From IMG/VR virus record IMGVR_UViG_3300037454_000146, positions 35,374 through 99,373 of that record: 64,000 nt of DNA; one strand, given 5' to 3'. This document shows positions 3,533-21,794 of this stretch, one piece after another. The first letter of the stretch is position 1, and each line of letters begins with the position of its first letter. The notes beneath the pieces are model-generated. The model had not been told where the DNA came from. It did not search any database and was given only the letters and a program-made list of their open reading frames with translations. This stretch comes from a virus. The translations under genes and the position numbers were made by a program.

Positions 3533-4579
3533 TTATACTATATATGCCCCTGTTTTCTTTACTATTGCAATATCGTTAAAGCTATAAGCCCCGTTTCCCT
3601 GTATACAATTAAGTATATTAATTTTGAAGATATAGTCGCCATTACTTAAAGCAGATACAGGCAGGGCTACTTTGAAATCTGCCGCCGAACCATTATGACC
3701 GAAAACAAGAGTATTATAATCAGATGATTTCGTGAATGTAAGGTAATATACGCCGTTATTTGTCATAATTATATTATCTGTAAGATACCGCACTAATGTA
3801 TTGCCATTAAACGCCGACATTTGAAATCTCAGATTTGTTTGAGTGTCGGTCGTGGTTTGAGTGATTATACCAGTTGATGTGTCGATAGTTGCATTAGCCT
3901 TTACACTCAAATTAGATACATTATAATTATTAGTCGCAAATGGCATAATAAGGCTTAATAAAATATTGTTTTTATTTGTTTCGATTTGCTCCACGTCCGC
4001 AGATGTAATACCGCTGTTCACTGCTGCAAGCTGTGCTGTGGTGAGTGTTGCCTGCTTGCCGTCGAGCGCTGACTTAACAACCTTGTTCTGTACAGGGTTT
4101 GTGGATGTTCCGTTGAGAGCAGAATCGACTGTTGTCTTGTTAGCCTGTACCTCTATACCAGCGAGTTTCGATTTCTCATCGTTAGTATAGTCATTCGTTG
4201 ACAGTCCCTTGCCTGTTTCGGGCTGTACTGCTGTTGCACCAAGAGCCGCACCGCTTCTGATTGTCGCAAGGTCTGAAATCGTATTCTGTTTTGAACCGAG
4301 AGCTGTGTCAACTTCTGTTTTTGTATAAGTTGTTGACTTATCAGCTTTATCATCGAGAGCAGTCTCAACGTCACCAAAGCTATCAAGTGTTTCTCCGTCC
4401 TTAATAGCCGCGATATCAGCTCTTGCAACAGTATCTTCGGAACTTACCTCACCAGATGCGTTGATTGTCTGTGTTCCGTCAGGATTATCTACTATCTGAA
4501 TGTTTGAACCGCCTTTAAAGTGGGAGTTTACATATTCCGCAGAACCGTTAAGAGCCGCGCCTAATGTTACTATATCCAT
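3533..4579 (-). CDS. tail fibre protein
   Basis: Repeated fibre-type motifs (KTEVDTALGSKQ, GKGLSTNDYTNDEKSKLAGIE, TVDSALNGTS, VVKSALDGKQ) followed by a C-terminal globular domain. Lies at the end of the tail module. Confidence 0.75.
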   Translation of the reverse strand: MDIVTLGAALNGSAEYVNSHFKGGSNIQIVDNPDGTQTINASGEVSSEDTVARADIAAIKDGETLDSFGDVETALDDKADKSTTYTKTEVDTALGSKQNTISDLATIRSGAALGATAVQPETGKGLSTNDYTNDEKSKLAGIEVQANKTTVDSALNGTSTNPVQNKVVKSALDGKQATLTTAQLAAVNSGITSADVEQIETNKNNILLSLIMPFATNNYNVSNLSVKANATIDTSTGIITQTTTDTQTNLRFQMSAFNGNTLVRYLTDNIIMTNNGVYYLTFTKSSDYNTLVFGHNGSAADFKVALPVSALSNGDYIFKINILNCIQGNGAYSFNDIAIVKKTGAYIV

Positions 4580-4595
4580 ATATTAAAACACCTCC

Positions 4596-4901
4596 TCACG
4601 CAAGAATAGTCGCCCATACATTAGTAAAACCGCTTGCACTATCAAGCGAGATTGTGTGCAGACCACTTGCGTCGGCGGCGTAAATTTCATTATCAGTTAT
4701 AGTGTCTACAACTGCAAAGTCCTTTAATCTAACCAGAGAAAGAACCTTATAATCGCCATTAGCGGTCAGCTTGCCAACCACCTTGCAAGAGCCTGTGCCT
4801 GAAGCCTTAATTCTGATGTCTGAACCAGTTGAAACTTTCATTTCATTTACGACACCATTTGCGTATAAGTCTCCATTAATAACAGAATATCTGTTTGCCA
4901 T
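4596..4901 (-). CDS. hypothetical tail-module protein
   Basis: 101-aa ORF between baseplate and fibre genes. Confidence 0.45.
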   Translation of the reverse strand: MANRYSVINGDLYANGVVNEMKVSTGSDIRIKASGTGSCKVVGKLTANGDYKVLSLVRLKDFAVVDTITDNEIYAADASGLHTISLDSASGFTNVWATILA

Positions 4902-4920
4902 AACTCATCACTTTCCTTTC

Positions 4921-5532
4921 TTACGCGGGCAGTAAGCAGAACACTTGTCCTACAAGCGTGTCGCCTTGCCCTATTGCATTGTGTAAAATAAAAGATAACT
5001 TGCCCGTGTGGAGTGTGTTGTCCTCAAACTTTGCCTCTATGTCATAGACGGCGCTGTCCGACAAATTGCGGAGCACACCGTAATAACTCCCCGAAATTGC
5101 CCCCACAGAGAACGGGTAAACATTTGCCACTGTTGCGATAGCGGTGTCAGCCGAAATTGCCGATTCCGCCGTTATTTGAAACGCCGCGAGAACAGCATTA
5201 TCGGTCATGCGAATTTGAATCACTGACGAATCCGCCAAATCCTCGCTTGCGGTAAACTCTAAGTCCGCGCTATGTTTGCTTTGCGCCGCCACAACATAAG
5301 ACGTAGAGTTGCTGATGTACCCGCGATACGCGAGCTTCACCTCGTCGCCGACCTCAATCAGCGAGCCACTCAGATTCTTTACAGTGAAAATACGTTTATC
5401 CGAAATCATCTCCACGCGCACGTAGTTGTTAGCCTGTAAAGCCAAAACCTTGCACGGCGCGATAGAGATAAAATCGGCATCGAGGAGGGCGGCTTGCACG
5501 CGCTCGTCAATGAGTTTTACTATCGTGTTCAT
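4921..5532 (-). CDS. hypothetical tail/baseplate protein
   Basis: 203-aa ORF overlapping the stop of 5529..7352 by 4 nt. Confidence 0.5.
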   Translation of the reverse strand: MNTIVKLIDERVQAALLDADFISIAPCKVLALQANNYVRVEMISDKRIFTVKNLSGSLIEVGDEVKLAYRGYISNSTSYVVAAQSKHSADLEFTASEDLADSSVIQIRMTDNAVLAAFQITAESAISADTAIATVANVYPFSVGAISGSYYGVLRNLSDSAVYDIEAKFEDNTLHTGKLSFILHNAIGQGDTLVGQVFCLLPA

Positions 5533-7352
5533 ATGCCACCTCCCTCAATTCCTGTATTGTCGGGCAACCATGATGTTTGGGTTGCGTTTACTGTCATTGC
5601 CTCTGCGCTCAAAGGCATTGTAATACTATTCACCACGAAAGTCGCGTGGTCAAGATTATACCTTTTGTCTGTTATGCCAATTGTGCGATTTACGTCCAAG
5701 TGCGGGATTATCGGGCAAGAGAACGTGATTGACATTCCTTGCATTGCTTCCTTCATAAGCAGATAGTCCGCGTATGCCTTGCACCGCGCTTGCATTTCGG
5801 ATTGTGGTACGTTCACGTATGGGATTTCAACGTCTGCCATGCGACGTATGCCCGCGCCATCAAGTCGCAAAGGTGACGCGGGATTATTGTTTGCCGCCGT
5901 GTACGACACGTTTTCGAGGTCGCTCTCGTTTGTGTAGACCGTAACGACGTTATAGCCATCGAGGTTAAAGTCCACGCTCGCGTTGCTGTACATATCGTCC
6001 TCATCTGAGAAGTCCCACTGGTGCGCCATAAAGCGGTAGCCGTCTATGCGGCTTTCGTCCGCCATTACCTGAAAGCAGAAGTGTCCGTTGGTATTGTAGT
6101 ACGCGTCCGCGCCGTAACCGTCAGCGATAGAGCTGAAAAGCGTCGAGATGTAGTCGTTGCTGTTTATGGTGATTTCGTTCTGCGTGCGGATTCCGTCAAA
6201 CTTTGTGCTTATTATGGGCGTTATTGGGTCTACGGGATATGCTGACGCGCCCGTCCTATGATTCAGATACGGGGAACTAAATTCGTTCCACATCAATGTG
6301 TCTTTAATAACGTTGGTCAACGTCGTGCCAGCCTCTACGATACAAGAGGTATCCAACATTCCCGTCTTAATCGTGCCGTCCAAAGCGCCGCCTTTGTCCA
6401 CGCCTTGTATGCTTACCGTATCGCCGTCACACGTCGCCTTTTGTGTGTAGAACACGCCATAGCTCCACCAGTATGTTTTTTTGCCAACCTCTATGCCAAG
6501 CCACAATTTGAACTTGCGATTAAACCATATCGCGCTATCTTGCGACGGCAGATACTTCTTTTCCACGTTAATGAGATTCAGCGAGCATGAGCGTCGTGTG
6601 ATTTGTTCATTGTTTATTGTAACTTGCCCCGATGAGCCAAGAGATACGTCGCGGGTAATTTCACCAATGACGTTCTCGTAATAGCCGAGGAGTTCTACGC
6701 GAATCTTATAGCGGCGATGTTTTTGCCGTAAGGCATAGAGATATTCCGCATTGTACTCGTCGTAAAATTCGAGCGGGTCAACGGTCGGCGCGGGCGGAGG
6801 AGGAGGGGTATATTCTATATTGGGTTGCAACAAGTTGAAGGGATATCCGTTGTTCCACTCTTGACTTATTCGCCATAGCTGTGCAGGATACGGTGCTGTC
6901 ATTGCAGGCTCGATGATGTCAGGCGCGTCAATCGGCACAGGATAGCCGTTTTCACCTATCTCAAAGGCTATTCCATCATCATACGTTACCTTACAACCTG
7001 TTATTTCGGAAGGCGTAATATTTGATGTGTCTGAATATTTTAAACACATTTTGAAATACATCGTGGTTTGATATGATGATAAATCAAATGTGTACGGTGA
7101 ATTATACCAACCTATATCACAAGTATTTGGCGGAGATGTTGTTACATAGCCAACAAGGTCAACTTGAATAGTTTTCCCTGTCGATACTGTCGCACTGGCT
7201 GTGAGTTTTCTTCCGACAAAAGTCGCGGGGAGTTGTATATAATTAATAGAGCGGACACGAGTTGAAGATTCTGTTGGTATGCCGCTTGCGAGCGTTCCCT
7301 GTTCTATCCCATATGATAGCACATCAATAGTTCTTATCGCCACGTTACTCAA
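5529..7352 (-). CDS. tail-associated (Tal/prophage-tail-type) baseplate protein
   Basis: 607 aa, downstream of the tape measure and distal tail genes. Has a PPPPPAP linker. Assignment is by position and size. Confidence 0.5.
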   Translation of the reverse strand: MSNVAIRTIDVLSYGIEQGTLASGIPTESSTRVRSINYIQLPATFVGRKLTASATVSTGKTIQVDLVGYVTTSPPNTCDIGWYNSPYTFDLSSYQTTMYFKMCLKYSDTSNITPSEITGCKVTYDDGIAFEIGENGYPVPIDAPDIIEPAMTAPYPAQLWRISQEWNNGYPFNLLQPNIEYTPPPPPAPTVDPLEFYDEYNAEYLYALRQKHRRYKIRVELLGYYENVIGEITRDVSLGSSGQVTINNEQITRRSCSLNLINVEKKYLPSQDSAIWFNRKFKLWLGIEVGKKTYWWSYGVFYTQKATCDGDTVSIQGVDKGGALDGTIKTGMLDTSCIVEAGTTLTNVIKDTLMWNEFSSPYLNHRTGASAYPVDPITPIISTKFDGIRTQNEITINSNDYISTLFSSIADGYGADAYYNTNGHFCFQVMADESRIDGYRFMAHQWDFSDEDDMYSNASVDFNLDGYNVVTVYTNESDLENVSYTAANNNPASPLRLDGAGIRRMADVEIPYVNVPQSEMQARCKAYADYLLMKEAMQGMSITFSCPIIPHLDVNRTIGITDKRYNLDHATFVVNSITMPLSAEAMTVNATQTSWLPDNTGIEGGGI

Positions 7353-8193
7353 CTCCTATCGGAAAGCCGACAGTATCGTGAAGATATTGTGCGTCCTTCA
7401 TCTGTGCGGTTGTAAGGCTATATACAACACCCGCGATTGTGGTTACAGGCAAGGCATTCTCAACGATATTCTTGCCCGAAGCGGTTGTGTAGCCCACTCC
7501 GCTTCCCTTGCCGATAACACAGCAGTTGTTGATGTTGTTGCCGAGATTAACTGCGATGTTTGCATTTTCTGCGGTGATATCGAACAATGTATTATCCCAT
7601 GACCAATCCGTAAGTGCGACTTGCGGTGAGCAATTCAAGTATTTCACCCTTATATTACCATAATAAATAGTATTCTTATCATTATTCCCACTATACCGAT
7701 TAACTAAGATTTTGCAGTTTCCCGTGCTTGTTTCGATATTTGCCGCAATTTTCTGCACATCAGCATTAATTCGCGGTGAATTCTGATACGCGGCTCGAAT
7801 CAATGCCGCATTGTCAACGCGACCCGAAAAGCCAACATTTTTAACAATGTCTGCACCATTATTGGGGTTAATATCTATGGCATATCCGCCAGTCAGATAT
7901 AGGTTTGTGAAGGAAATGTTTTTTATCCACCGTTCCACTTGTTGACCCGAGGGTGTCGCAAGGGTAATTGCCGCGCTATCCGTTCCCGAATGGCAGAGGT
8001 TGTTTATCGCATACCCTTTGCCATCAAGTGTGTGTGTGTTTGTGGTTGATACTGTTACATTTCCCTCGGGAGCTTCAATATCATTCGCAAGCTCAATATA
8101 GTTTTCTGACACTCCGTCGAATGCCTCTAACAGCTCACTCCAATCATGGACGATGTAGGGGTCTGAGCTTGTTCCGCTTCCGCCTAATGCCAT
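7345..8193 (-). CDS. beta-helix-type tail spike/receptor-binding protein (paralogue of 8207..9334)
   Basis: N-terminus GGSGTSSDPYIVHDWSELLEAF followed by N/G-rich repeats typical of right-handed beta-helix proteins. Confidence 0.45.
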   Translation of the reverse strand: MALGGSGTSSDPYIVHDWSELLEAFDGVSENYIELANDIEAPEGNVTVSTTNTHTLDGKGYAINNLCHSGTDSAAITLATPSGQQVERWIKNISFTNLYLTGGYAIDINPNNGADIVKNVGFSGRVDNAALIRAAYQNSPRINADVQKIAANIETSTGNCKILVNRYSGNNDKNTIYYGNIRVKYLNCSPQVALTDWSWDNTLFDITAENANIAVNLGNNINNCCVIGKGSGVGYTTASGKNIVENALPVTTIAGVVYSLTTAQMKDAQYLHDTVGFPIGVE

Positions 8194-8206
8194 ATAATCC
8201 CTCCTT

Positions 8207-9334
8207 TCATTCTATTAGCGTGCCGCCTGTGATTAACATACCAGACTTAAATGACGTACTGTAATAAGTACAACTTGTCGGCAACGTAGCTCTATCAAGT
8301 TGATTTATTGAAAAAGAGTATCGCCCAATTGAATTTGTGGTCATGGGGAATATGCAATCCTCGTCGCCGATTTCTCTAAGTTGAACATTGCCATTAAAAG
8401 CACCAAGACGATTTATCGTTATCCAATCAGATTGCCATAATTCATTCGCGTCAAACTCCCACGGGCTGTCACCGCCAGTTGTGAAACCAGCATTATTCAA
8501 AGCCGTTTCGTCAGCCAGCGTTGCTGAATCAAGCCCTGTCCAACTGGTTGTACCGACAGTAAATGTCATTTTGTCTGAATTATAAAACGCCGCCGCATCG
8601 GGGACGGGTTGGTCAGGATAACTATCCCATCTCGCAGTAGGTGTGTCCGCCTTTAAATCAATCAGTGAATCGGGATAAGTTGTATCGCCAACCTGTTTTA
8701 CGGTGTCGTAAATCGAAAGCCACGTTGAGCATTTTGCAATACCCTTAATGGTACTCGCGTTAAGGTCAATTCTGTCAAGCTGTCCACATTGGCAATCCCA
8801 ATCAAGATATATTTCGCAATTGTTGAGCCGCACATGATTTGCTTGTCCGCCCCCTAAGAAATACACAAATCGAGATTTACCCTTAAACTCCATTTGGCAA
8901 TTGGTTAGCGTAAAATTCTGCAAATACGCCTTAGATAGCATATACACGTCAGCGGTAGAACCACCCTTAAACTGACAAGTTACACGCAAATTCTCCGCGT
9001 CATTTTCGAGCTCAATGATTGAAAGAACCTCGTTCACAAATAATCCGTCGATATAAAGCCCCTCGACCGTCCCCTTGAAGTTTATAGCCTTGGTACTAAA
9101 CTTATTGCCGAAAATTACCAAATGCCTCCAATGTGCGTCGTTGCCTATAATGTTAGGGTAAATAACCAATCCCGTATTCGTCGTAAAACCTTGCGGGTAA
9201 ACGTGCCCGAAATTGATAGTGGTACGATTTGCAAATTTCACGTAACTGCCAATATTATCGACGACATTATACTCCGAAAATTCGTCCCAATTATTAACAA
9301 CCCAAGGGTCAACTTGTGTTCCGCTTCCAGCCAT
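8207..9334 (-). CDS. beta-helix-type tail spike/receptor-binding protein
   Basis: N-terminus MAGSGTQVDPWVVNNWDEFSEY parallels that of 7345..8193. Confidence 0.45.
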   Translation of the reverse strand: MAGSGTQVDPWVVNNWDEFSEYNVVDNIGSYVKFANRTTINFGHVYPQGFTTNTGLVIYPNIIGNDAHWRHLVIFGNKFSTKAINFKGTVEGLYIDGLFVNEVLSIIELENDAENLRVTCQFKGGSTADVYMLSKAYLQNFTLTNCQMEFKGKSRFVYFLGGGQANHVRLNNCEIYLDWDCQCGQLDRIDLNASTIKGIAKCSTWLSIYDTVKQVGDTTYPDSLIDLKADTPTARWDSYPDQPVPDAAAFYNSDKMTFTVGTTSWTGLDSATLADETALNNAGFTTGGDSPWEFDANELWQSDWITINRLGAFNGNVQLREIGDEDCIFPMTTNSIGRYSFSINQLDRATLPTSCTYYSTSFKSGMLITGGTLIE

Positions 9335-9346
9335 AACATCGCCTCC

Positions 9347-11335
9347 TTATTCAATAATCTGTATGTTATCGGGCAAGCATACGGTATTAATGTTTGCCTC
9401 ATAAAACGCTGTCGAACATATCTGAGTGACTATTTTACCATTAAGTGTATTAGGAATCTGCGGATTCTTATAATTACCAATATATGCAATAATGATAGCT
9501 TTGCCATTTTCAATTGTATAAATATAATCCGCTTCGCTTGTCGGGTCGTACTCGTCGGGTATATCACGAGCACAACGATACTGCTCAGAATCTTCAAATA
9601 TAGATGTGTCGCCGCCGCTTTGTGCGAGATAATACTCAATCTGAATATTATCAACGTCCGCACATTCAGCCCACGAGAACGTGAAACGTGTCGGTATTTT
9701 GTAATAATCTTCCTGATATTCCACAGATGGACTCTCCACTATATTGACAACCCAAACGTCGCCCTTTTGCGATTTTAACAAGAACGGGTGAGGGGCGGAG
9801 ATAAACTCGCGCCAAGCCCTTACAAGAGAAATGTCATCGTGATATTTGTGGTCGCAACAATTGAAATATCCAACATAACCCGATAGCGTACCAGTCATGT
9901 AGTTGACCTCTGTCGAGGACATGGTGGTATATTTACTATATCCGACCTGAAGAACGTTGCCAAGATTCTGCGCAACCGTTGTGTTTTCTATATCACATAT
10001 AAACTTCCAAGTATCTGTGAGCGTGTAACTGTTTTCGCCATTAGGCTCAAGGGCTGAAATGAAATATCCGTCAAAATTCGTCTTGACATTACAGTGGCTT
10101 ATGCTACGCAGATAAGGTTGACCCGTTGTTGCATTATAAGGAATTGTAGTATATTCATAATTGCCTTTAGTAGAAACCTTGAAGTCAAATTGAACTTCTT
10201 TGCCAGTTAAGCGCACGGTTTTGCCTGTATTGAGGTCTGTACGATAATATCGAGTGCTTCCACCCGCATTGTTCTTATCGTAACAACAACCATAGCCGTT
10301 AATAGGATGCCATACGTGAGTAATTTCGATGGGCGAGTAGTCGTCAATTCCTTCTATATCAATCATCGTATATGCGGAATAAGTTACGTTATCCTGAGTA
10401 ACCATATCGCAAACCACACGATAATACACCTTGGATATATCTTCGCCTTCATCATCTATAAATCTGGCAAAACAATTCTTGAATAAGTATTCCAATCTCT
10501 GAGAGAATATTTTACCCGATTTCTCAATCTCGATAGCTGAAGCCGATTCTGTATCACTCGTTTGTGCATAGAGCGTCATCTCATAATACTTTATAGGCGT
10601 GTTATTTGCCTGTGAGTAAGCGCCTGTAACATACAAACTATCATCAGGATTATGTTGATACCCTAATTCGAGCGTCAAACTCGGCAGAGCACGGCACATG
10701 AAATAATATTGCGGGCTGATAAGATAATTTGAATATATTTGATAGCGTGCGCCCGTAGTCGGCAAATTCGTGAACGCCGAGTCTATCGTGACCGCGCCAT
10801 ACTGGTCGTATGTGTCCGCTGGCAGATAATTCTCGATAAACCGCCTCTCGCCGTTTATCTCTATCACCATGCCAGCCATCACCACATCGTCAACCTTCGT
10901 GGGGTAATACTTGCCGTCGTTGCCGTTATAGCCCCACTCATACAGCGGCAAATGTTTGTCAATGAAAAGCACCGTGGGACTGCCCGAGCCGCCGCTCTGA
11001 ATAGACCCGCGACATACGGGAATGTCGTACAAATTATTCTCGCCCGCAAGGTCGCGTTGCGCCATCATCACTTGCCACACGTAGTCGTGACCGTCCGTAA
11101 GCCCTTGTGCGCTGGTCGCCATTGTTATTTGGTCGCCGTTAAACGCGGGACAACCGCCGTGGCTTTCCATTGCTTCGCCCCAATAGCCAATACCGATTTT
11201 TTCGCCAGTCGCCATATCCGTCGCTTTAATGTTGTAGTACGAGAGCCTGTCTCCGTTGAACGTGAAGGACATAACCGTTGAGTTCGCAGGTTTCGCCGTG
11301 TTCTCAGGACTTACATTTGTTGGGTATTGTAGCAA
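9347..11335 (-). CDS. large tail protein with C-terminal BspA-type leucine-rich repeat
   Basis: Start proposed at TTG 11335, 7 nt after AAAGGAGG (11350-11343). The track starts at 11368. C-terminus (IIAYIGNYKNPQIPNTLNGKIVTQICSTAFYEANINTVCLPDNIQIIE) looks like an LRR_5/BspA repeat. Confidence 0.5.
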   Translation of the reverse strand: MLQYPTNVSPENTAKPANSTVMSFTFNGDRLSYYNIKATDMATGEKIGIGYWGEAMESHGGCPAFNGDQITMATSAQGLTDGHDYVWQVMMAQRDLAGENNLYDIPVCRGSIQSGGSGSPTVLFIDKHLPLYEWGYNGNDGKYYPTKVDDVVMAGMVIEINGERRFIENYLPADTYDQYGAVTIDSAFTNLPTTGARYQIYSNYLISPQYYFMCRALPSLTLELGYQHNPDDSLYVTGAYSQANNTPIKYYEMTLYAQTSDTESASAIEIEKSGKIFSQRLEYLFKNCFARFIDDEGEDISKVYYRVVCDMVTQDNVTYSAYTMIDIEGIDDYSPIEITHVWHPINGYGCCYDKNNAGGSTRYYRTDLNTGKTVRLTGKEVQFDFKVSTKGNYEYTTIPYNATTGQPYLRSISHCNVKTNFDGYFISALEPNGENSYTLTDTWKFICDIENTTVAQNLGNVLQVGYSKYTTMSSTEVNYMTGTLSGYVGYFNCCDHKYHDDISLVRAWREFISAPHPFLLKSQKGDVWVVNIVESPSVEYQEDYYKIPTRFTFSWAECADVDNIQIEYYLAQSGGDTSIFEDSEQYRCARDIPDEYDPTSEADYIYTIENGKAIIIAYIGNYKNPQIPNTLNGKIVTQICSTAFYEANINTVCLPDNIQIIE

Positions 11336-11389
11336 GTTACCGCCTCCTTTCATATAGTTTAGGCGCACACCGAAGTATGCGCCTGTTAG

Positions 11390-14300
11390 TTATCTGCGCG
11401 GCTTGAATACCTGACTTTCGGTCAGAACCGTCTGCATATAGGATTCCATTTGTCTCGCGAATTGCTCCGCGTTCTGTACGTTGGGGAGATTGATTACTGT
11501 GCCGTTAAATGTGACCGCGTTTGCCGTGTCGGATTTCTTGCCCAAATTCTGTGCGATTCGCATATTGCCCGTAATAGCAGAAGGTGTTAGCGCGGGAGAG
11601 TTGTGTAGCGCATTATAGAGCTTTGCCGCATCGGTCGAATTGAGCACGAGCTCGGGGCGTTGCTTTGTTCCGTGGAGCATTGCAAGTCCCGTATAAGTAT
11701 TCACTCCGCCGTCTGCGTATGCGCCTATTTTTCGTAAATATGCGTCCCAAGCCGAATTAACATCTTGATTATACTTAGACAAATCTTCTTTAACGATAGC
11801 TCTCCTAATACCATATTCGTCTACCTCTAACCTATCAAGTCTCTTTTCAATATCGTCTATGCGGTTGTCATAAGAAGAATAGTCCATACCCGCAACAGAC
11901 TCATTGAGTTCATCTTGGGCTTGAGTTAATTTGCTTATGATAGTCGAATACTTTTTATAAAACGAATCAAGATTTCGAGCCATATCGCCCTCGTCACTAC
12001 CCATGCTTAATGAAATATTGTAGGCTTCTTTATAAAAATCTTGAACCGAGTCTTTGGCTTCTTTCGCAACATTTTGCACCTTAGATTTGTATTCTTGCCA
12101 TTTCTTAATTTCTTTATCAACGGCTGCAATCTGTTTGTTTGAGGCTTCGATACTCTTATTTACAGCCACCATTTCTACATTAGAAACACGACTGAGCTCG
12201 TCGGCATACTTATCATATTCCGTTTCGTAATCATTAAGAATATCTAAGTCCTGCTCGGCAATCTTATCACGCCAATCAGCACCAAGTATCTGCTCGGCAA
12301 GTCGCTCATCTTCTGCTTTTTGCCTTTTTTGAGTAACACCTTCCCATTGTTTCAGATATTCCTCTAAGACCTTAATATCTTGATTAGCTTGCGCCTTATC
12401 TACTTCCCGTTGAGCCTTATCAATATCTGACTTCTTAGCCTCATACTGCCAACCGCCCGCTTCTGTATAGGTACGAACTTTCTTGTTTTTAGCATTTTCG
12501 AGATTTGCAAGTTTCTCCGCGAGGTCAAGAGCTTCTTCACGCTCCTCGTTCTGCTCCTTAATTGCTTCAATCTGTTCCTTGATAGCGTTTTGAACGGTAT
12601 TTGCAACCTTTTCGTAATTCTCAGTAATTTCTTCGAGAGCGTCTTTCTGTTCCTGCAAGACCGTGAGTTGCTCCTCCATTGCTTCTTTAGAGGCTTCAAT
12701 AGCAGATTTTTCAGCTTCATAACCCTCTATAACGGAATCAATTTTGTATTCCTGTGCCTTTAAAAGAGTGTCCGCTTCTTCATTGAGTTCTTTAGTAAGA
12801 TTGTTAAGCGCTTGCTGACGGTCTACTGTGTCACCAAGACTTCCGTTGTAATATTGCAACACAACATTATTGCGATCCCAATCCTCTCCAATCTCAACAA
12901 CTTTTTGTTCTGCCGTCTCTAACTGATTCTGCAATTCAACGTATTGATAATAGTTAGGATTGTGAGAGTTTTTACGCATTTCAGACCACGTGTTCATTTC
13001 AGCCCGAATTGAAGCTACTTCTTCTTGCGCGGCTTTTTTAGCATTAAGCAACTCAATTTGTTTGAGCTCTATAGATTGAATTTGTTTTTGAATATAAGCA
13101 TCTTTCAGGTCAATAAGTTGTTGCTCTGTGACTTTAAATTGTCCACTAATACTATCAAAACTTGCAGGACTTAAATATTTAGTGCCTAATTCGTCATCCA
13201 ACTTATACAAGTCCATAAATGCATCTCTGTCAATACCGTTGCCATTAGCAAGCGTCTGAAGTGCTGACTTCATAGCGTCGATATTCTTTAACGTCGTTTT
13301 CTTTAATTCGTCATAGCTTTCATACCAAGCCTCAGACATACTTTCGATTGCTGTAATTGCACCAGAAGCTCCTGTTTCAAAGGAAGAAAACAATGAATCT
13401 ACGTCTTGTTGCAAAGAAGGATAGTCTGCCCCAATTTTATTTAGCTCTTGCCTAATCTCATCAAGGCTTTGCGCCGCTTGTCTCTTTTTTATAGTGGTAT
13501 TATCACCCGCAATAACGTGATTTAATTCTTTGGCTTTATCAATCAAAGAATTGTAATTATCTAATACGTCTTGTGGAACTTCAAACGAATTATAATATTT
13601 GGTTTGACGCTCCATTTGGTCGGCATCGGCTTTATCAACTTCATATTTTGCTCTTGCCGCTACGTATTGCGCCATTAAGCCCTTATAAATATCTTCGTCA
13701 TATCCGTCGATTTCTTTATAAGTGTCGGCTATTTTTTTCCAGCCCTCAACTTGCTCCTCTAAAGTACCCATAACTGCAATGTCAGCTTCTTTGCCCCACA
13801 TATCAGTAGCTATATGGTCAAAAGCAACCCCTGTGTCATGGAACAGCTTTAACATATTAGACAAGTCGGTTGTTGTATCGGCTTTTATCTTTGCACGATA
13901 AAATTGAGTTGAATCAGAATCGGCAATTCTTGCATTTTTGTCAGTACCCTCAAGCGATTCAACGGCTTGTTTGTACCTCTTTTGATTTTCGGTATCGAAA
14001 ATGTAATCTTCAACCTTTTCTTTTTTTAACTGTCTTATCTTTTCAATTTCTTCCGATAATTTGCCATTAACCAAATCAATACCCTCGGCTTCTTCGCCAT
14101 ATTTGGATATTAATTCGCCTTGCATTGAAGATAATTCCTTTTGGATTCCAACTAAATCATCTGTAGAAGTATAAAGTTGAAGGTATCTATCCATTATTGA
14201 ATCTAACGAATTGATTTCCTCGCCCATAGCCTCTATAGATTGATGACCAGAATCGCGCAACTCTTTTGCGGCTTCAGCAGCTTTTTCTTCTGCGTGATAC

Positions 14301-14623
14301 CACTCGTCAATTTGTTTAACAACTAATGATAAAGCATAACTTAACCCAAATGATATAGCCGCATTAAGAGCTGCGGTTGCAACTTGTAATGCAATAGTCT
14401 TAGCACGAGCAACCACGAGGGATTTGACATACCCGCCCATTGTTGCTTCTGCACCATTAAGCCCTGATAGATAATTTTTTAGTCCGACATTCGAGCCGCT
14501 AATCTCATCATCAAAAGCCTCTTGGACATATTTAGCTTTATTAAGAGAATAGTTATAATCGTCTAAACTCGTTGTTATCTTCTTTATATCATTGCCAAAT
14601 TTACTAATGTCAGAACCGAATAT
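11390..14623 (-). CDS. tail tape measure protein, exon 2 (1,077 codons)
   Basis: No Shine-Dalgarno before ATG 14626. In frame with exon 1 after the predicted splice at 14624/14623. Long coiled-coil with hydrophobic helices near the N-terminus (TIALQVATAALNAAISFGLSYALSLVV). Confidence 0.7.
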   Translation of the reverse strand: MFGSDISKFGNDIKKITTSLDDYNYSLNKAKYVQEAFDDEISGSNVGLKNYLSGLNGAEATMGGYVKSLVVARAKTIALQVATAALNAAISFGLSYALSLVVKQIDEWYHAEEKAAEAAKELRDSGHQSIEAMGEEINSLDSIMDRYLQLYTSTDDLVGIQKELSSMQGELISKYGEEAEGIDLVNGKLSEEIEKIRQLKKEKVEDYIFDTENQKRYKQAVESLEGTDKNARIADSDSTQFYRAKIKADTTTDLSNMLKLFHDTGVAFDHIATDMWGKEADIAVMGTLEEQVEGWKKIADTYKEIDGYDEDIYKGLMAQYVAARAKYEVDKADADQMERQTKYYNSFEVPQDVLDNYNSLIDKAKELNHVIAGDNTTIKKRQAAQSLDEIRQELNKIGADYPSLQQDVDSLFSSFETGASGAITAIESMSEAWYESYDELKKTTLKNIDAMKSALQTLANGNGIDRDAFMDLYKLDDELGTKYLSPASFDSISGQFKVTEQQLIDLKDAYIQKQIQSIELKQIELLNAKKAAQEEVASIRAEMNTWSEMRKNSHNPNYYQYVELQNQLETAEQKVVEIGEDWDRNNVVLQYYNGSLGDTVDRQQALNNLTKELNEEADTLLKAQEYKIDSVIEGYEAEKSAIEASKEAMEEQLTVLQEQKDALEEITENYEKVANTVQNAIKEQIEAIKEQNEEREEALDLAEKLANLENAKNKKVRTYTEAGGWQYEAKKSDIDKAQREVDKAQANQDIKVLEEYLKQWEGVTQKRQKAEDERLAEQILGADWRDKIAEQDLDILNDYETEYDKYADELSRVSNVEMVAVNKSIEASNKQIAAVDKEIKKWQEYKSKVQNVAKEAKDSVQDFYKEAYNISLSMGSDEGDMARNLDSFYKKYSTIISKLTQAQDELNESVAGMDYSSYDNRIDDIEKRLDRLEVDEYGIRRAIVKEDLSKYNQDVNSAWDAYLRKIGAYADGGVNTYTGLAMLHGTKQRPELVLNSTDAAKLYNALHNSPALTPSAITGNMRIAQNLGKKSDTANAVTFNGTVINLPNVQNAEQFARQMESYMQTVLTESQVFKPRR

Positions 14624-14660
14624 CATATATTAAAAATCGTTTTTTTATTTGATTTTTAAC

Positions 14661-14689
14661 TTGACAAATTAGAAAATATTTGTTATAAT
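14661..14689 (+). promoter_or_regulatory. consensus sigma-A promoter for the zinc-ribbon gene
   Basis: TTGACA (14661-14666), 17-nt spacer, TATAAT (14684-14689). Confidence 0.7.
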
Positions 14690-14714
14690 ATAATAGAAGA
14701 AAGGGGTTGATGTT

Positions 14715-15230
14715 ATGAAAAATAATCTTATCAACGAAATTAAAAAATATTCAATCGCAGATTTAAAGATTATATTAGACACTCAACAAGATTTATATAC
14801 CATTGACGAGATGAACATTATTAGAGATTATTATGAAAAGTGTAAAAATGAATACATATCTAAGCACACACCAAAGCTAATCCCTTGCCCTAAATGTGAC
14901 GCGCAAAATGATTTTAATTCTACAACTTGCACATATTGTGGTCAACCTATAAACAACAAACCTTATTTAGATAGAATATGCAACGAAATGCTTGGGATTA
15001 TAACCGCAGAAGATGTGAAAGACGACAACGATGATTATAATGGCAAATCCCCCTCGTTCTTATTCCAGTATATAATCAGCTTCATAATACCTCTTATTGG
15101 TTTAATTGTAGGTGGCGTGTTTATTGCAAGCGATGACGAAGATAAGAACGCGTCGGGCAAGATTTGTATTGCGATTAGCATTATATCTATCATTGTAAGC
15201 ACCACTCTATATGTTTTAATATCAAAATAA
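14715..15230 (+). CDS. zinc-ribbon membrane protein (moron; possible exclusion or defence factor)
   Basis: CPKC...CTYC zinc ribbon and two C-terminal TM helices (FLFQYIISFIIPLIGLIVGGVFI; ICIAISIISIIVSTTLYVLI). AAAGGGG RBS. Opposite strand to all flanking late genes. Confidence 0.6.
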   Translation: MKNNLINEIKKYSIADLKIILDTQQDLYTIDEMNIIRDYYEKCKNEYISKHTPKLIPCPKCDAQNDFNSTTCTYCGQPINNKPYLDRICNEMLGIITAEDVKDDNDDYNGKSPSFLFQYIISFIIPLIGLIVGGVFIASDDEDKNASGKICIAISIISIIVSTTLYVLISK

Positions 15231-15234
15231 CCTC

Positions 15235-15263
15235 TTGACAAAATCTCTTGCTTGTGCTATAAT
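15235..15263 (+). promoter_or_regulatory. consensus sigma-A promoter for the repeat RNA and toxN-like gene
   Basis: TTGACA (15235-15240), 17-nt spacer, TATAAT (15258-15263). Confidence 0.7.
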
Positions 15264-15292
15264 AACCTTGCGGAGCAATCCGCACCGTGTCG

Positions 15293-15382
15293 TGTCGCTC
15301 CCGATTAGCGTCTAATAAATCATCGGATATGAATGTTTGTCGCTCTCTGATATGCGACTAATAAATCGTCAGACTCAAATCT
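15293..15382 (+). ncRNA. candidate type III antitoxin RNA: two imperfect ~45-nt tandem repeats
   Basis: Repeat units start at 15293 and 15338. Both begin TGTCGCTC and share the core GCG(T/A)CTAATAAATC(A/G)TC(G/A)GA. They lie between the promoter and the toxN-like ORF. Confidence 0.55.
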
Positions 15383-15408
15383 AAAGCCTTGCCTAATCGC
15401 AGGGCTTT
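15383..15408 (+). terminator. hairpin between repeat RNA and toxin ORF (attenuator-type terminator)
   Basis: AAAGCCUUGC-CUAAUC-GCAGGGCUUU, a 10-bp stem with one G.U pair. Only a weak U tract follows. Confidence 0.4.
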
Positions 15409-15425
15409 ACTATTAGGAGTATTTT

Positions 15426-15878
15426 ATGATTACAGGTCACTTCTATTTTCTCAAGCCAGAATATACACAACAATTTGCAAATCCAAAGTTTATGAATAAC
15501 AATGAACATAACCGCCCGTATTTCTGTGCCTTTACAGAGGATAGCCACATCTTTTGGCTTGTGCCGATTTCCTCTAAAGTGGATAAATTTGAACGTATTT
15601 ACAACAATAAAGTTGGTCGTTATGGTAAGTGTGACACCATTGATTTCTGCCACATCCTCGGCAGAAAGAAAGCGGTTTTAATCCAGAATATGTGTCCTGT
15701 AACACAAGAGTTTATTTTGAATGAGTATAACGATCCGCATGGTAAGCCAGTACAACTTTGTGAGAAAGTGCGCAAGCGCATTACTCATAAAGCAAAGAAA
15801 GTCCTCGTTCTTCACCGCAAAGGCGTTGACCTGTTGTTTGGGGACGTTCTAAAAATTAAAAAAGAATTATCAAAATAG
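15426..15878 (+). CDS. ToxN/AbiQ-family (type III TA) endoribonuclease toxin-like protein
   Basis: 150 aa. N-terminal FYFLKPEYTQQF, then NRPYFCAF...IFWLVPISSKVDKF. This resembles the ToxN/AbiQ pattern (FY..S.KY..YL ... Y.APLTSPK.K) as recalled from memory. TAGGAG RBS. Preceded by tandem repeats and a hairpin. Confidence 0.65.
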   Translation: MITGHFYFLKPEYTQQFANPKFMNNNEHNRPYFCAFTEDSHIFWLVPISSKVDKFERIYNNKVGRYGKCDTIDFCHILGRKKAVLIQNMCPVTQEFILNEYNDPHGKPVQLCEKVRKRITHKAKKVLVLHRKGVDLLFGDVLKIKKELSK

Positions 15879-15884
15879 TTGAAT

Positions 15885-16475
15885 ATCGTACCCCTAATTC
15901 CATTCACTGAGACTGAATTATGAGGTGATGAAAAAATGAGTTTTGTTTATAAACCCGTACACGTTAGAGCATATTATCGTATACGTTACGGCGCACTGGA
16001 ATATGTGCGTGAACACTATCGCTCATATCCCATAAGATAATGGGAGTTCACCAGTAATTTGGTCAGGATTCAAACTCTTTAATCCAGTGGACGGAACTAA
16101 GGGTACGATTTTTCTGCTTTCTCCACGCTTGCAGTAGCGCAAAACAATAGGGGAGAATCCTCTTTGAAACCAACGCATTTCTGCGCCTATGGACTATATC
16201 TTTGTGGTGTTACGCCACAGCTTCTTTTAGTCTCTGAACCTTCCCTTGCGGGCTTGGCTGCTGATTAACCGTTAAACAACCTTTAGCTTTTGAGCATGGG
16301 TTATCCGCATAATTTTTTCTGCTTTCGCAACATTCACGCTTGCAACCAGTGGTTGCTACGTTGTAGTCTACGCGGCTTTGGGTACTTCCAGCAATTAAAA
16401 AGCTCATTTGTGAGGGACGTATCACCCCGCAACAATTTCGTAACAATGCGAGGTTAGGCATATTCGGTTAGGTTT
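15885..16475 (-). ncRNA. group I ribozyme core and peripheral stems
   Basis: Minus-strand elements: P AAUUGCUGGAAG (16396-16385), Q AAUCAGCAGCC (16266-16256), R GGUUCAGAGACUAAA (16240-16226), S AAGAUAUAGUCC (16202-16191). GNRA hairpin CCCGCAAGGG (16252-16243). A 17-bp closing stem pairs 16109-16093 with 15901-15885. Confidence 0.75.
15936..16040 (+). CDS. possible 34-aa basic peptide (MSFVYKPVHVRAYYRIRYGALEYVREHYRSYPIR)
   Basis: GAGGTGA 7 nt upstream of the ATG. Lies inside a peripheral stem-loop of the intron on the opposite strand and may be fortuitous. Confidence 0.2.
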   Translation: MSFVYKPVHVRAYYRIRYGALEYVREHYRSYPIR

Positions 16476-18989
16476 ACCTATCCCTTTGAAGCTGCCGACA
16501 GCGGCGAGCCCTGTAAGTAAAGTCGGGAGTGTCCCGAACTTGTCGATGATTTTTGTCAGTATCTCTAAAAACTCTTTGGCGGTGTCTACCACGCCCTTAA
16601 TAAAGTCGCTACCTACGACCGTCTGAGCGAGGTCTTGGTATGCCGCCTTTAAGCTGTCAATAGAATACTGAATCGACTTCGCGTATTCTTCTTGCTCGCG
16701 ACGTGCAGAGCCCGCAGAACCCTCGGCGGTCTTGTAAACCTTTTCAAGCAACTCGCCGTTTTCGAGGATTGCCGCACCTATATTCGACTGACGTTTGCCA
16801 AATAGCTGCTCAAGAACTGAGCTTCGCGAGAGGTCATCAAGTTGACCCCACACCTTAGAGATTTCGAGAAGAATCTGATATGTTGATTTATATGTTGTGT
16901 CGTCAAGCTGAATGTCTACGCCTGTAAGCGCAAGCATCTGCTGTCTGAGCTTCGATATATTTTCAGCCGCACCCTCTGCATCCTCACCAATCTGTTCAAG
17001 CTCTGTCTTGGTTGAACGGAGACGAAGTGATACGGTTTTGATGCCCTGTCCGACAGTGGTCGGGTCTTGGGCGACAGTGTTTGCCGTGGTGATAAGCGCT
17101 ATACTTTCGCTCAGAGTGTTATTTCCAGCCGCTAACGCGGAAGCAGAGCGTTTGAGAGCCTCACCTATACCACCAGAAGATATTGCGAAGTTATTGCCGA
17201 CTTCGTTAAATTTGTCTACAATTTCTATCGAGTTCTGCGCCTCTATATTAAAGGCTTTCATCGTAGACACTAAATCTTCTGCCGCTTGTGTTTCAGTTAT
17301 GCCGTCGCCGACATTCTGATAAAGTATCGCAACCTTACCGAGCTCCTCCGCGTCGGGCAAAGATTCACCCAGTCGTGCAAAGGTGCTTGTGGCGTTGATT
17401 ACGTCGGTTATGCTCGCACCGAGCTCTTTGGCGGTATTGCCCGCAGACTTCTGAAATTTTCTGAAATCTTCTTCGGTCGCTTCAGTAACCTTGCGAAGTT
17501 CAACCATTGCCGTGTCAAGCGCCGTTACCTCGTTTACCATATCTCTAATCTGCCTCTTGACAAAATTAAAGACCATATTCGCGGTAATGTAGCTCGACAT
17601 TAGTTTGAATGAATTTAAGAATTTACCCCAAGCACTTTCACCTTTGAGTCCTGCGGCTTCAGCCTCTTTACCAAAGATGCGGAACTCCTCGCCAAGATGT
17701 TTAACTTCACTCGCGCTCAAATCCGCGCCTTTCGCCATACGAGATGTCAAGTCCGCCCACTTGGAGGCGAAAGTTGTGCCGTCAGACATTTGCTTGGTAG
17801 AATCTATGGCTCTCTTATTAGCAGAAGCATACGCTTGCATATCTGCTGAGAGTTTCTTAATCTTATTAGATAAAGAAGTTTCTCGACTAAGAGCCTTTTC
17901 TTCCTTTTGAGCCGCCTTTAAACCATTGGTAATATCTTGAATGGCTTGGCTTACTTCTCCATATTTCTTACTCCATTCTAAGCCACGACCAGATTCACTT
18001 TCAATCCGCTGCAACTCTACGAGATTTTTACTTGCATTTGCAAGATTGTCACCCAAAGACGATTTCGCGGACTCATCTGATAGAGCATCTATATCTTTTC
18101 TTAACGCATTAAGCGTATTATCAAAATTTTTAGCTTTGTTAATTGCGTTATCAAATATATTAAAGGAACTTCCAGTCGATTTTAGCGACGTTCCGATATT
18201 AGCCGCAGCCGTCTTGAGATTATCAAGTGCCTTCTGTGCGGATTCCACAGAGCCAACGCCAGACTCTAAATCAATAATGGCGTTACGAGCTGTGGTCAGC
18301 GGCTCAATTAAACCACTTTCGATTGATTTGTGGCTTGCCTCGAAATTAGCAAGCTCTTTACTTAGTCTTGCTAAATCTTGCTGTATTTTGCCAACGCCCT
18401 TGTCAGAATAAGAACCACCAATATACTCAAACTTTTGACCAGTAGAATCAAGCAAGAAATTAAGTTCTCTAACCTCGCCAGAAGCAGCCTGTATTCTCGC
18501 AATTATCTTATTTATACTATCCGCCGACTCTTGATCGTTATATTTGCCTGTAACGGTAACAGTACCCAATGATGATAGGCGACTTTGTATTGTAGCCATT
18601 GTACGCTCGGCGTTGATTATCCCGTCTGCATTTGTCGCAACCTTAAACGGCTCAACAAACCTACTATCTAAATCCGCAAGCGTTTTCTTTAAAGTGAGAA
18701 CTTTGTTTGTTACAGTTTCGACACTCTTAGCAACATTCTCGATGTTTTGCGCCGATTGTCCAGTACCAGCCTGTATTTCTATTTTGGGAATATCTATTTT
18801 CAGTTTTTTAGATATTTCGCTAACTTGATTTTGCAGAGTAGCCAAACTGTTTGTGTCGAGACTACAAGCTATTGATAATGCTTTGTTGGCATCCAATCGC
18901 TTTTTAACTTCTTCTAAATCTTTTTCAATTGTACTGACGGTCTTGGGTATGTCCAAACTCGCCACTATTTCAATTCTGTTATCGTCCAT
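16476..18989 (-). CDS. tail tape measure protein, exon 1 (838 codons; TP901-type core)
   Basis: Contains NTAKELGASITDVINATSTFARLGESLPDAEELGKVAILYQNVGDG...ISSGGIGEALKRSASALAAGNNTLSESIALITTANTVAQDPTTVGQGIKTVSLRL. The unspliced frame runs 17 further codons into the intron and stops at 16422. Confidence 0.8.
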
Positions 18990-20702: not shown

Positions 20703-21794
20703 TTATTCTGCGTATTTCCAGATGCAATTGGCATATATTTCTTTCTTATTCTGACAACATAGTGACACATAATAAGAATTATATCCATTTTGTTTTATTT
20801 CTGAGAGCGATGCATATTGATTTAATAAAACATTATTCATATCATATTGCTCATATTTAATAGCGTTCTGTTGCGATTGCAATTCTTGATAATATAAACG
20901 GTCATTCTCCAAATTTTCGGTCGATTCATTTTCGTATCTCCACACATAACCAAAAGCAGTATCAACCATTCTCCTACAACAAGACGAAATCAGCGATCTG
21001 TTTGTATAACCAGTTTTATCTTCAATTTCTCTAATTGAATTAAAACTACAAATTAGATTCATACCCATATCGTATTGATTAATTTTTAATCTTTGAGCCT
21101 TTTCATTAGCATAATCCAAGCGTTTTTGTAACAACTCATCAGAATAATCTTCCTCTTTAATCCATATAAATCCTTTATAAGAACGCTTAATACCACTTGC
21201 TACCGCTGACACACAGCTATGAATATAGCCATCTTGTTCAGCCTCTGTCAATGAATTGTATTTATGAAGTATTTCTCCACTATCTTTATCTATTTTATAT
21301 ATAGGACGAATACAACGTTCTTTATTTCTTTCAGCAATTCCCGTATTATCTTTTGTATAATCAGTTCTTTTCTTTCGAGTGCCAGAAGCCCAAGATTCTT
21401 TTTGAGCTTTTCTCATATTATTACAAGCATCAGCAGGAATTGGAACTCCCAAATGAGCCATTGATTGCCTAAGTCGTGTTTCCTCAGTAATTTCTTTATT
21501 TAAATTTCCGCCTTTTTCAATATTAAATCCTCTTTTAAGATTTGTAGAATCGTAAAAAGCAATTAATTCAATTTCTTTTGTTTCAGCTTCTTCTTTTGAT
21601 AAATTATCATACAATATCTCCGAAACTATACAATCCCATCCGTTTTTTAATATGAATCTGAAGAAGTGAATATTGTCTTTATACCCTCGACCTCTATCAA
21701 ACCTTCTTTTCGGGTTTTTCTGACAAGTGACTCCGATATATACTCGACCATCTGGGACAGTGTGTTTATACACTTTATATTTCTTTTCTTCCAT
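20703..21794 (-). CDS. GIY-YIG homing endonuclease with three NUMOD/IENR-like DNA-binding repeats
   Basis: YKVYKHTVPDGRVYIGVT...R...E...N core. Three C-terminal repeats of the type Y(D/K)...L..(Y/F)(N/A)S..E(A/I)......(G)Y....(I/V)S..C......(G/A)(F/Y/C)(I/V)W. Confidence 0.75.
   Translation of the reverse strand: MEEKKYKVYKHTVPDGRVYIGVTCQKNPKRRFDRGRGYKDNIHFFRFILKNGWDCIVSEILYDNLSKEEAETKEIELIAFYDSTNLKRGFNIEKGGNLNKEITEETRLRQSMAHLGVPIPADACNNMRKAQKESWASGTRKKRTDYTKDNTGIAERNKERCIRPIYKIDKDSGEILHKYNSLTEAEQDGYIHSCVSAVASGIKRSYKGFIWIKEEDYSDELLQKRLDYANEKAQRLKINQYDMGMNLICSFNSIREIEDKTGYTNRSLISSCCRRMVDTAFGYVWRYENESTENLENDRLYYQELQSQQNAIKYEQYDMNNVLLNQYASLSEIKQNGYNSYYVSLCCQNKKEIYANCIWKYAE

Follow-up and report, generated by a model that had tools for sequence, protein, structure and literature searches.

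How can a phage carry a toxin-antitoxin (TA) cassette within the gene for its tape-measure protein and still make that protein? This question is raised by positions 15235-15878 of a 64,000-nt stretch of DNA (hereafter the window), which spans record positions 35,374-99,373 of the IMG/VR virus record IMGVR_UViG_3300037454_000146. A preliminary description of the same DNA had proposed here a type III TA locus, ToxIN/AbiQ/CptIN-like and carried by a phage; matches to tape-measure, large terminase, portal and tail proteins identify the window as part of a tailed phage, in agreement with that proposal. We put at about 85% the probability that the locus is a complete, functional TA cassette of the CptIN family, lying antisense within a group I intron of the tape-measure gene. 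Less is understood about CptIN than about the other two classical type III families, and it is known from bacterial chromosomes and one archaeal chromosome. Coordinates are given in window numbering, and L-numbered names (L001, L002 and so on) denote comparison loci from other contigs or genomes.

Identity of the toxin

The 150-aa open reading frame (ORF) of the preliminary description was confirmed at 15426-15878 on the plus strand, and we name it cptN, a gene for a predicted endoribonuclease toxin. Comparison by hidden Markov model (HMM) and by predicted structure, both of which had been suggested as checks, led to the same family: the protein matched the NCBIfam CptIN equivalog NF047359 with 167.8 bits (E 1.4e-49; cut-off 90 bits) and, over residues 1-136, the sequence of CptN from Eubacterium rectale (CptN_Er, PDB 4RMO; E 7e-21). 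Moreover, an AlphaFold2 model computed with 25 homologues as input (mean predicted local distance difference test score, pLDDT, 91) had 4RMO_A as its top Foldseek match, with template-modelling (TM) scores of 0.90/0.88 and a root-mean-square deviation of 2.1 Å; AbiQ (TM 0.75) and MazF/CcdB-like toxins came next, and ToxN_Bt reached TM 0.57.

Other type III families scored below their cut-offs, with 20.5 bits for Pfam ToxN_toxin (PF13958; threshold 25) and 16 bits for NCBIfam TenpIN (cut-off 90), and the PADLOC AbiQ model gave a weak match (18.9 bits, E 3.5e-4). Assignments to ToxIN and TenpIN were rejected on these sub-threshold scores, and the type III call of the preliminary description narrows to CptIN specifically. 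By these comparisons, the predicted toxin is related to ToxN/AbiQ at the superfamily level only, and the predicted TA system is a new member of the CptIN family that can be named by the NCBIfam model.

The active site of CptN_Er consists of a Ser-Ser/Thr-Arg triad plus Tyr104, which stacks on the scissile adenine (PMC4627078). In our alignment, S49-S50-K51 and Y101 of the window protein correspond to S51-S52-R53 and Y104 of CptN_Er, so that the third triad position is Lys in the window versus Arg in CptN_Er. S50 and Y101 are invariant in the 25 homologues, and the window protein keeps every family-invariant residue.

The antitoxin repeats

Upstream of cptN, on the same strand, lie two copies of a repeat that we assign to the RNA antitoxin CptI. 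Imperfect tandem repeats had been described from 15293 and 15338, where both copies start with TGTCGCTC; the repeats themselves are real, but homology to the E. rectale antitoxin (CptI_Er) places the unit register about 5 nt away from the one first drawn. Thus, unit 1 likely occupies 15287-15332 (HMM E 0.012) and unit 2 likely 15333-15378 (E 1.8e-8), at a spacing of 45-46 nt, with the second unit ending 47 nt before the ATG of cptN. Since an HMM trained solely on clean bacterial CptI units detects both window units independently, the repeats are beyond chance. Tandem Repeats Finder (minimum score 30) did not report the repeats at the cptIN locus because the units are too diverged, and an Rfam scan gave no family match for them.

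Over a 25-nt core, the two copies are 80% identical at 46-nt spacing, and a gapped alignment by eye gives 33 identical positions in 46 columns (72%). In the preliminary description, a repeat identity of about 70% was taken as either a novelty or a warning. The comparison set does not bear this out: among 85 loci with a related toxin gene (80 of them in GTDB species genomes, the other 5 in IMG/VR), adjacent units are 0.5 to 1.0 identical, so the divergence of the window units falls at the low end of the normal range and is no anomaly. Furthermore, tandem repetition upstream of the toxin scores best at a period of 46 nt in almost all of these loci, and the HMM counts exactly two units in 83 of 86. 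Published cptIN loci have repeats of 40-48 nt in 1.9-3.4 copies and toxins with a mean of 149 aa (PMC3401426); repeat length, copy number and toxin size in the window are within these ranges, and the earlier reading of a ~45-nt repeat as a CptIN trait holds.

Single-unit minimum-free-energy folds (z +0.28 and -1.59) were uninformative, since the method cannot model pseudoknots. We therefore aligned 142 distinct units and scored them on an H-type pseudoknot model with stems S1 (5 bp) and S2 (6-7 bp). S1 and S2 together were paired in 94% of cells, and pairing dropped to 45% or less when the stem partners were slid by 1-3 columns. Double-sided changes in the stems occurred in 177 cells, against 41 ± 5 in shuffles, and were seen at 10 of the 12 pseudoknot pairs. 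On this covariation, the CptI repeat RNA is predicted to form an H-type pseudoknot with an A-rich L2 loop.

In unit 1, S1 pairs 15294-15299 with 15307-15312 (one U·U mismatch), S2 pairs CCGAU 15301-15305 with AUCGG 15322-15326, and the A-rich L2 is 15313-15321. In unit 2, S1 is formed by GUCGC 15339-15343 and GCGAC 15354-15358, S2 by UCUGAU 15346-15351 and GUCAGA 15368-15373, and L2 by 15359-15367. The S2 stems of the two units differ by, among others, a compensatory change of C-G to U-A; part of the divergence between the units is compensatory within the pseudoknot stems. Likewise, S1 of unit 2 changes from GUCGC/GCGAC to ACCGC/GCGGU in L002 and L003. The CptI_Er sequence, AAGUUUACCACUGACCGAUAUGUGGUAUAUAAAUGGUCGGGUUGA, taken from a primer in PMC4627078, aligns with the consensus AUGUUUGUCGCUACUCGAUAUGCGACUnAUAAAAGGUCGAGUUCAA, and the stem positions, the short L1 and the 9-nt A-rich L2 correspond.

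This alignment also bears on where the RNA would be cut. An AAAU within each repeat had been likened to the A-rich sites cut by ToxN-type enzymes; the alignment places this motif (UAAUAAAUC) in the A-rich L2 loop and not at the scissile site, and the unit boundaries, UGA^AUG at 15332/15333 and CAA^AUC at 15378/15379, are the probable cleavage sites.

Transcription signals and operon layout

The promoter reported at 15235-15263 is indeed perfect, reading TTGACA-17-TGcTATAAT on the plus strand, with 12 of 12 consensus positions and a TG extension, and predicts a transcription start at about 15270. Both hexamers are retained in L001, L002, L003, L004, L149 and L164, with a diverged spacer. In the whole window, TTGACA-N17-TATAAT occurs eight times (at 14661, 15235, 21893, 48103, 49662, 58598, 61808 and 63365), against 0.03 expected from shuffles, so this phage clearly uses such promoters. 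A spacer motif, AAATTAGTG, is common to several of the eight.

The short 5' hairpin that had been noted is present as well: UGCGGA-GCAA-UCCGCA at 15269-15284 (plus strand; folding free energy, dG, -10 kcal/mol; z -2.5) would form the 5' end of the CptI precursor, and hairpins of differing sequence occupy the same place in most related loci (z < -1.5 in 70%). In the gap between antitoxin and toxin, an inverted repeat forms a terminator-like hairpin (plus strand; dG -16 kcal/mol; z -3.15), which was first drawn as a 10-bp hairpin at 15383-15408; its stem measures 11 bp, at 15382-15409. An equivalent hairpin was found in 98% of related loci, and the one in the window is likely a terminator with an imperfect U tract (UUUACUAUU). 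An Rfam match to isrJ (18 bits, E 2.9) covers this terminator hairpin only and was rejected. A ribosome-binding site, AGGAG at 15415-15419 (plus strand), is read from the sequence 6 nt upstream of the cptN ATG. The window thus has the family-standard order of promoter, 5' hairpin, two CptI units, terminator hairpin, ribosome-binding site and toxin, and the promoter-repeats-terminator-toxin layout, from which the preliminary description argued for a type III system, matches that of the related loci. All of the elements listed in that description lie at the coordinates given there or 1-2 nt away. Past cptN, 16113-16170 comprises a U-rich tract, likely the terminator tail of the cptIN transcript, and a segment of about 58 nt common to the intron-nested loci L001 and L149.

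Position within the tape-measure gene

The cassette is antisense to the tape-measure gene and lies within the 3' extension of a group I intron, between the catalytic core and the 3' splice site. The whole intron, 1852 nt on the minus strand, extends from 16475 to 14624, with its 5' splice site after U16476. Its core (16171-16457, minus strand) matches Rfam RF00028 over the full model, 1-253, with 60.7 bits (E 2e-14; gathering cut-off 50). Exon 1 (16476-18989, minus strand; 838 codons; PHROG 4211 tape measure, E 5.9e-82) terminates in ...GGG AUA GGU at 16476, and exon 2 (11390-14623, minus strand; 1077 codons plus stop) is collinear with the uninterrupted ORFs of L002, L004 and L086.

The splice sites are defined by pairing. 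P1 is formed by UAGGU 16480-16476 with GCCUA 16459-16455 and has the canonical U16476·G16459 at the splice site. Immediately 5' of the P1 guide, CCGAAUAU (16467-16460) is perfectly complementary over 8 bp to AUAUUCGG (14623-14616), the beginning of exon 2, and so provides P10; G14624, directly before AUAUUCGG, is the omega-G. The predicted ligation, GGU|AUAUUCGG, is in frame and yields a 1915-aa ORF without a stop that reads ...SFKGIG|IFGSDISKF... across the junction (junction-spanning peptide SFKGIGIFGSDISK). The intron-less homologue L086 reads ...IKGVG|IFGDL... uninterrupted at this point (DNA GGCGTAGGT|ATATTTGG). A catalytic core, P1, P10 and omega-G, and a ligation that restores the frame are thus all present at the sequence level, and we regard the evidence for nesting of cptIN in the intron as strong.

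A more conventional arrangement, in which an ordinary intergenic moron lies between two tape-measure-like genes, the intron ends near 16171 and the downstream half is translated from an ATG at 14626, seems improbable to us. It would agree with the gene callers, which annotate two genes of 855 and 1078 aa, with the ATG at 14626-14624, with the end of the Rfam match at 16171 and with sister phages in which the same cassette is truly intergenic. Yet no Shine-Dalgarno sequence was found before ATG 14626, the canonical 8-nt P10 complement stands directly after G14624, the joined exons are in frame with a junction that is uninterrupted in L086 (...GIG|IFG... in the window), and L002 and L004 also have a single uninterrupted tape-measure ORF across the region. 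A proximal 3' splice site at 16171 was rejected, as there is no P10 there and extension of exon 2 to 16170 gains only 35 unrelated residues as a tail. Moreover, L001, L149 and L164 have the same P1, P10 and omega-G although their cores have diverged. On this evidence, the flanking ORFs of 855 and 1078 aa are the two parts of a single tape-measure protein. Introns of this kind may be missed systematically by automatic annotation, since the gene callers split the tape-measure gene in two.

Recurrence in other phages and genomes

The nested arrangement is found in several phages. In three further metagenomic phages, L001, L149 and L164, cptIN lies antisense in an intron that shares its insertion site, P1, guide, P10 and omega-G with that of the window. 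L001, the closest relative, has a diverged core (44.4 bits, E 1.8e-8) but shares 96% identity with the window over the block that begins where the core ends and reaches the cptIN -35 box. The intron of L149 is 1040 nt long (core 45.4 bits, E 4.9e-10) and has cptIN as its sole cargo, with the -35 box 16 nt from the omega-G. L164 carries a zinc-ribbon ORF, and its contig ends within the intron core. These relatives came in part from a splice-site search of IMG/VR: a DNA pattern with one N at the 5' splice region gave no IMG/VR match, because L001 is without that base, and a shorter 17-mer then gave 26 matches, mostly by chance, of which L001 (twice) and the new L149 and L155 were related.

In L002, L003, L004/L005, L006 and L165/L166, by contrast with these nested loci, cptIN is intergenic, flanked by a 162-aa gene and the next tail-region gene; L163 has it at a third site. 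The intron-nested and intergenic positions indicate that the cassette is a mobile moron which one lineage keeps in its tape-measure intron. A general linkage of cptIN to group I introns was considered and dropped, as no group I intron was detected within 3 kb of cptIN in any of 40 more distant viral loci.

On a broader scale, a scan of GTDB genomes found 328 loci with CptN relatives, mostly in Clostridia and in Negativicutes such as Veillonella, and at least 45 IMG/VR contigs encode a CptN relative. PHROG 33519, of unannotated function, matches the window CptN at E 6e-19. Among 50,697 GenBank phage records, neither megablast with the locus nor tblastn with CptN (E < 1e-5) gave a match. An exact toxin match was found in one other contig, from a Logan assembly, in which the tape-measure gene is likewise split in two by gene callers.

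Other insertions were observed in this gene. L001 has a second insertion of about 1.3 kb in exon 1 (3036-4328), between window-protein residues 646 and 648, which the window is without; it contains a 315-aa ORF with weak Vsr-like and zinc-ribbon matches and is possibly another intron or a homing endonuclease insertion. L090 (4451-5792) and L088 (from 4442) diverge from the tape-measure gene at the same codon as the window, after ...GGT; no Rfam intron core was detected in either insertion, and that of L090 has an antisense lipoprotein-like ORF (MKKKTIAIFIFIFAIVIIISGCSE...). This codon may be a general hot-spot for moron-bearing insertions.

Integrity of the cassette

Several observations weigh against a cassette that is complete, functional and removed with its intron. 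All statements on toxicity, processing, splicing and a phage-resistance phenotype are predictions. The 5' edge of unit 1 (CACCGUGUCGUG) is without an A-rich motif, and its S1 has the U·U mismatch; because of both, unit 1 may be a partial or helper unit. Since unit 1 is without the 5' motif, unit 2 alone would be excisable at both ends, and it is the most likely mature 46-nt antitoxin; one CptI_Er unit suffices for full antitoxicity (PMC4627078). The exact phosphodiester bond cleaved is uncertain, and the boundary between the units of L164 reads GUGGAUG. Asp81 and Ser85, which specify the adenine in CptN_Er, are not conserved in the window protein, where the aligned segment is G79-R80-K81-K82; as these residues are described for one structure only, the difference is probably one between subfamilies, and it makes the cleavage specificity of the window CptN uncertain. 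A consensus terminator scan of the window made no call at the 15382-15409 hairpin, which is followed by no clean U run. Finally, the 1.55-kb stretch from P9 to the 3' splice site, together with strong internal antisense promoters, may impair splicing.

Some of these features would fit a decaying or domesticated remnant whose toxin is inactive or is no longer neutralised by the repeats: the units are about 72% identical and both escape Tandem Repeats Finder, unit 1 lacks the 5' cleavage motif and has a stem mismatch, and the adenine-specifying residues of CptN_Er are not conserved. The pattern of substitution makes a remnant very improbable. The ratio of nonsynonymous to synonymous divergence (dN/dS) of cptN is 0.025 against L001, 0.027 against L149 (proportion of synonymous differences, pS, 0.51) and 0.078 against L002, with dS of up to about 1.5, and all family-invariant residues are kept; as judged from these ratios, purifying selection on the gene is strong. 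When the window is compared with L149, both repeats together are identical at 87 of 89 positions (98%), whereas the promoter spacer is 69% identical (31% differ) and cptN synonymous sites differ by 51%. In addition, compensatory changes maintain both pseudoknot stems, and equally diverged units are common among bacterial loci.

Phage-encoded antitoxin mimics are known for ToxIN. That the repeats here serve mainly as such an anti-defence decoy, with phage CptI neutralising host CptN in the manner of the pseudo-ToxI of phage PhiTE, would suit the wide distribution of CptN homologues, with 328 matches in genomes of Clostridia and their relatives, the likely hosts, and a repeat region more conserved than the synonymous sites of the toxin, but we consider it scarcely credible, since the repeats are always inherited along with a full-length toxin that purifying selection maintains and CptI/CptN pairs are reported to be highly cognate-specific (PMC4627078), so that protection would extend only to a near-identical host toxin.

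Comparison with known systems

The closest described system is CptIN of E. rectale. Both have the same toxin fold with the Ser-Ser-basic and Tyr active-site residues, two units of about 45-46 nt directly upstream in the order promoter-repeats-terminator-toxin, an H-type pseudoknot in which L1 is short and L2 is A-rich and 9 nt long, and a GUUU motif after the cleavage site; S2 is CCGAU/GUCGG in E. rectale CptI and CCGAU/AUCGG in unit 1 of the window. They differ in that the toxins are about 29% identical in structural alignment, the boundary motif is (C/G)AAAU in the window versus UGAAAG in E. rectale, the third triad residue is Lys, Asp81/Ser85 are not conserved and the first unit has no 5' motif. 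Moreover, the window system is phage-borne and intron-nested, unlike the E. rectale locus.

With ToxIN of P. atrosepticum and B. thuringiensis and AbiQ of Lactococcus, the window locus has in common the operon logic and the protein superfamily and, by prediction, a self-processing endoribonuclease and a pseudoknot RNA. ToxI units, however, are shorter (about 36 nt) and more numerous than those of the window CptI, and the ToxIN complex is heterohexameric whereas CptIN is heterotetrameric. Abortive infection has been shown for ToxIN and AbiQ, not for any CptIN.

As to the intron, the nearest analogy is provided by IStrons, in which an IS200/IS605 element is joined to the 3' end of a group I intron (PMC4227781). 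IStrons and the window intron alike have no homing endonuclease gene, a core at the 5' end and kilobase-sized cargo before the 3' splice site, and in both, splicing would render the insertion harmless to the interrupted gene. Unlike an IStron, whose cargo is a transposase with TnpB, the window intron carries a TA cassette and small morons, antisense and with their own promoters, at a single conserved site of a gene for a phage structural protein. Phage genes of this class are known to harbour group I introns, with reports for Bacillus phage Moonbeam and cluster J mycobacteriophages, and the likeness extends to a self-splicing intron (predicted for the window) in an essential late gene of a tailed phage; those introns are ORF-less or contain homing endonuclease genes, whereas the one in the window carries a TA system. 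No homing endonuclease domain was detected in the two other intron ORFs (orf171 and a 34-aa ORF; Pfam, and PHROGs for orf171) or in CptN (four libraries).

All 33 cptIN loci known in 2012 were chromosomal and none of the 33 was on a phage (PMC3401426), and a 2025 survey reports phage-borne type III systems only for toxIN (one Clostridium phage) and now tenpIN. Our literature search found no description of phage carriage of cptIN and no TA or defence system as cargo of a group I intron, an absence that is no proof of novelty. The intron context of cptIN appears to be undescribed. The range of cargo of group I introns would thereby widen past homing endonucleases and insertion sequence elements, and a self-splicing intron would offer cargo for defence or addiction a safe place within a structural gene that is essential.

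Proposed mechanism and role

From its anatomy, the cassette would work as follows. The sigma-A-type consensus promoter would start a transcript at the base of the protective 5' hairpin; most transcripts would stop at the terminator with its weak U tract and supply an excess of antitoxin RNA, and read-through would carry the ribosome-binding site and cptN. By homology to CptIN_Er, CptN would be a metal-independent endoribonuclease that cuts the precursor at the A-rich boundaries, leaving a 2',3'-cyclic phosphate, and would then bind the 46-nt pseudoknot so released, forming a closed ring of protein and RNA that is inactive. Unit 1, having a 3' site only, would probably retain the 5' hairpin. 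If transcription of the cassette stopped or the RNA were degraded, the labile CptI would be lost and CptN would cleave cellular and phage RNA. As the cassette lies in an intron, splicing would excise it precisely from the late mRNA, at no cost to the tape-measure gene, and, owing to the antisense orientation, neither the toxin ORF nor sites cleaved by CptN would be present in the pre-mRNA of the tape-measure gene.

We think that the cassette is a moron expressed from the lysogen. Neighbouring cargo genes of the window, of L001 and of L090 encode small proteins of membrane or lipoprotein-like type, a pattern typical of lysogen-expressed exclusion genes. The lysogeny of this phage is itself indicated by integrase-like matches only, which limits how far that view can be pressed. 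The occurrence of cptIN at several positions in this phage lineage and the strong purifying selection on it point to a role in phage-phage or phage-host conflict, and the lineage offers natural material for studying what CptIN does. We lean, by a little, towards an abortive-infection-type defence against other phages. It tells against such a role that no CptIN system has been shown to abort phage infection and that the cptIN loci of E. rectale and R. torques produced no phage abortion in E. coli (PMC3401426, PMC4627078). Addiction, stabilising the prophage or the intron, is a possible role that we hold with some doubt; E. rectale cptIN stabilised a plasmid (PMC3401426, PMC4627078). Both roles together are also conceivable.

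A further idea is that the TA cassette replaces a homing endonuclease as the maintenance module of the intron, and that the antisense late transcript reprograms the TA system. The cassette may be more than a passenger, since it is the sole cargo in L149 and has stayed nested despite about 50% synonymous divergence; since it is antisense, the late tape-measure pre-mRNA is complementary to CptI and to the cptN mRNA. If the idea were true, the lytic switch might silence cptN in the late phase, or titrate CptI and so time a shut-off of host RNA, and the intron and TA cassette would form a composite selfish and defensive element that is harmless to the interrupted gene, self-stabilising and regulated by its host gene. 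We regard this as speculative and rather unlikely.

Phage context and further observations

Upstream of cptIN, the intron has a second antisense cargo gene, orf171 (14715-15230, plus strand), which encodes a zinc-ribbon protein with a hydrophobic C-terminal part behind its own perfect TTGACA-17-TATAAT promoter (14661-14689, plus strand). In its position, L001 has an unrelated 102-aa ORF (small membrane protein), L164 a 144-aa zinc-ribbon ORF and L149 nothing. Downstream of cptN lies an inverted-repeat module (15882-16112) with 28-nt arms at 15882-15909 and 16085-16112, which contains the 34-aa basic ORF (15936-16040) with its own ribosome-binding site; for 15876-16175 as a whole, the folding energy is -90.8 kcal/mol (z -4.8). 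L001 and L002 share the module with the window, likewise after cptN, and L003, L006 and L149 are without it; it looks like an optional insertion, either a miniature mobile element or a structured RNA. Neither orf171 nor the 34-aa ORF had an informative family match in Pfam, nor did orf171 in PHROG.

Genes from 240 to 49361 are nearly all on the minus strand, the exception being the plus-strand island at 14661-16040. Tyrosine-integrase-like genes are located at 36323-37348 and 58886-59818, a transposase gene (PHROG 506) at 59949-61064 and, at the right end, three tRNA genes (63492-63871); taken together, these genes are suggestive of a temperate phage, or of a prophage that ends close to the window's right edge.

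In several more distant viral contigs (L097, L101, L115 and L116), RAGATH-18 RNAs (67-71 bits) were observed 1.2-1.9 kb upstream of cptN. The sister phage L003 has a separate group I intron (4879-5200, 59.6 bits) in a different gene, so that introns are common in this phage group. Finally, a free-standing HNH/NUMOD-type homing endonuclease gene (20703-21794, minus strand) is located about 4 kb from the tape-measure intron, and could mobilise this endonuclease-less intron in trans.

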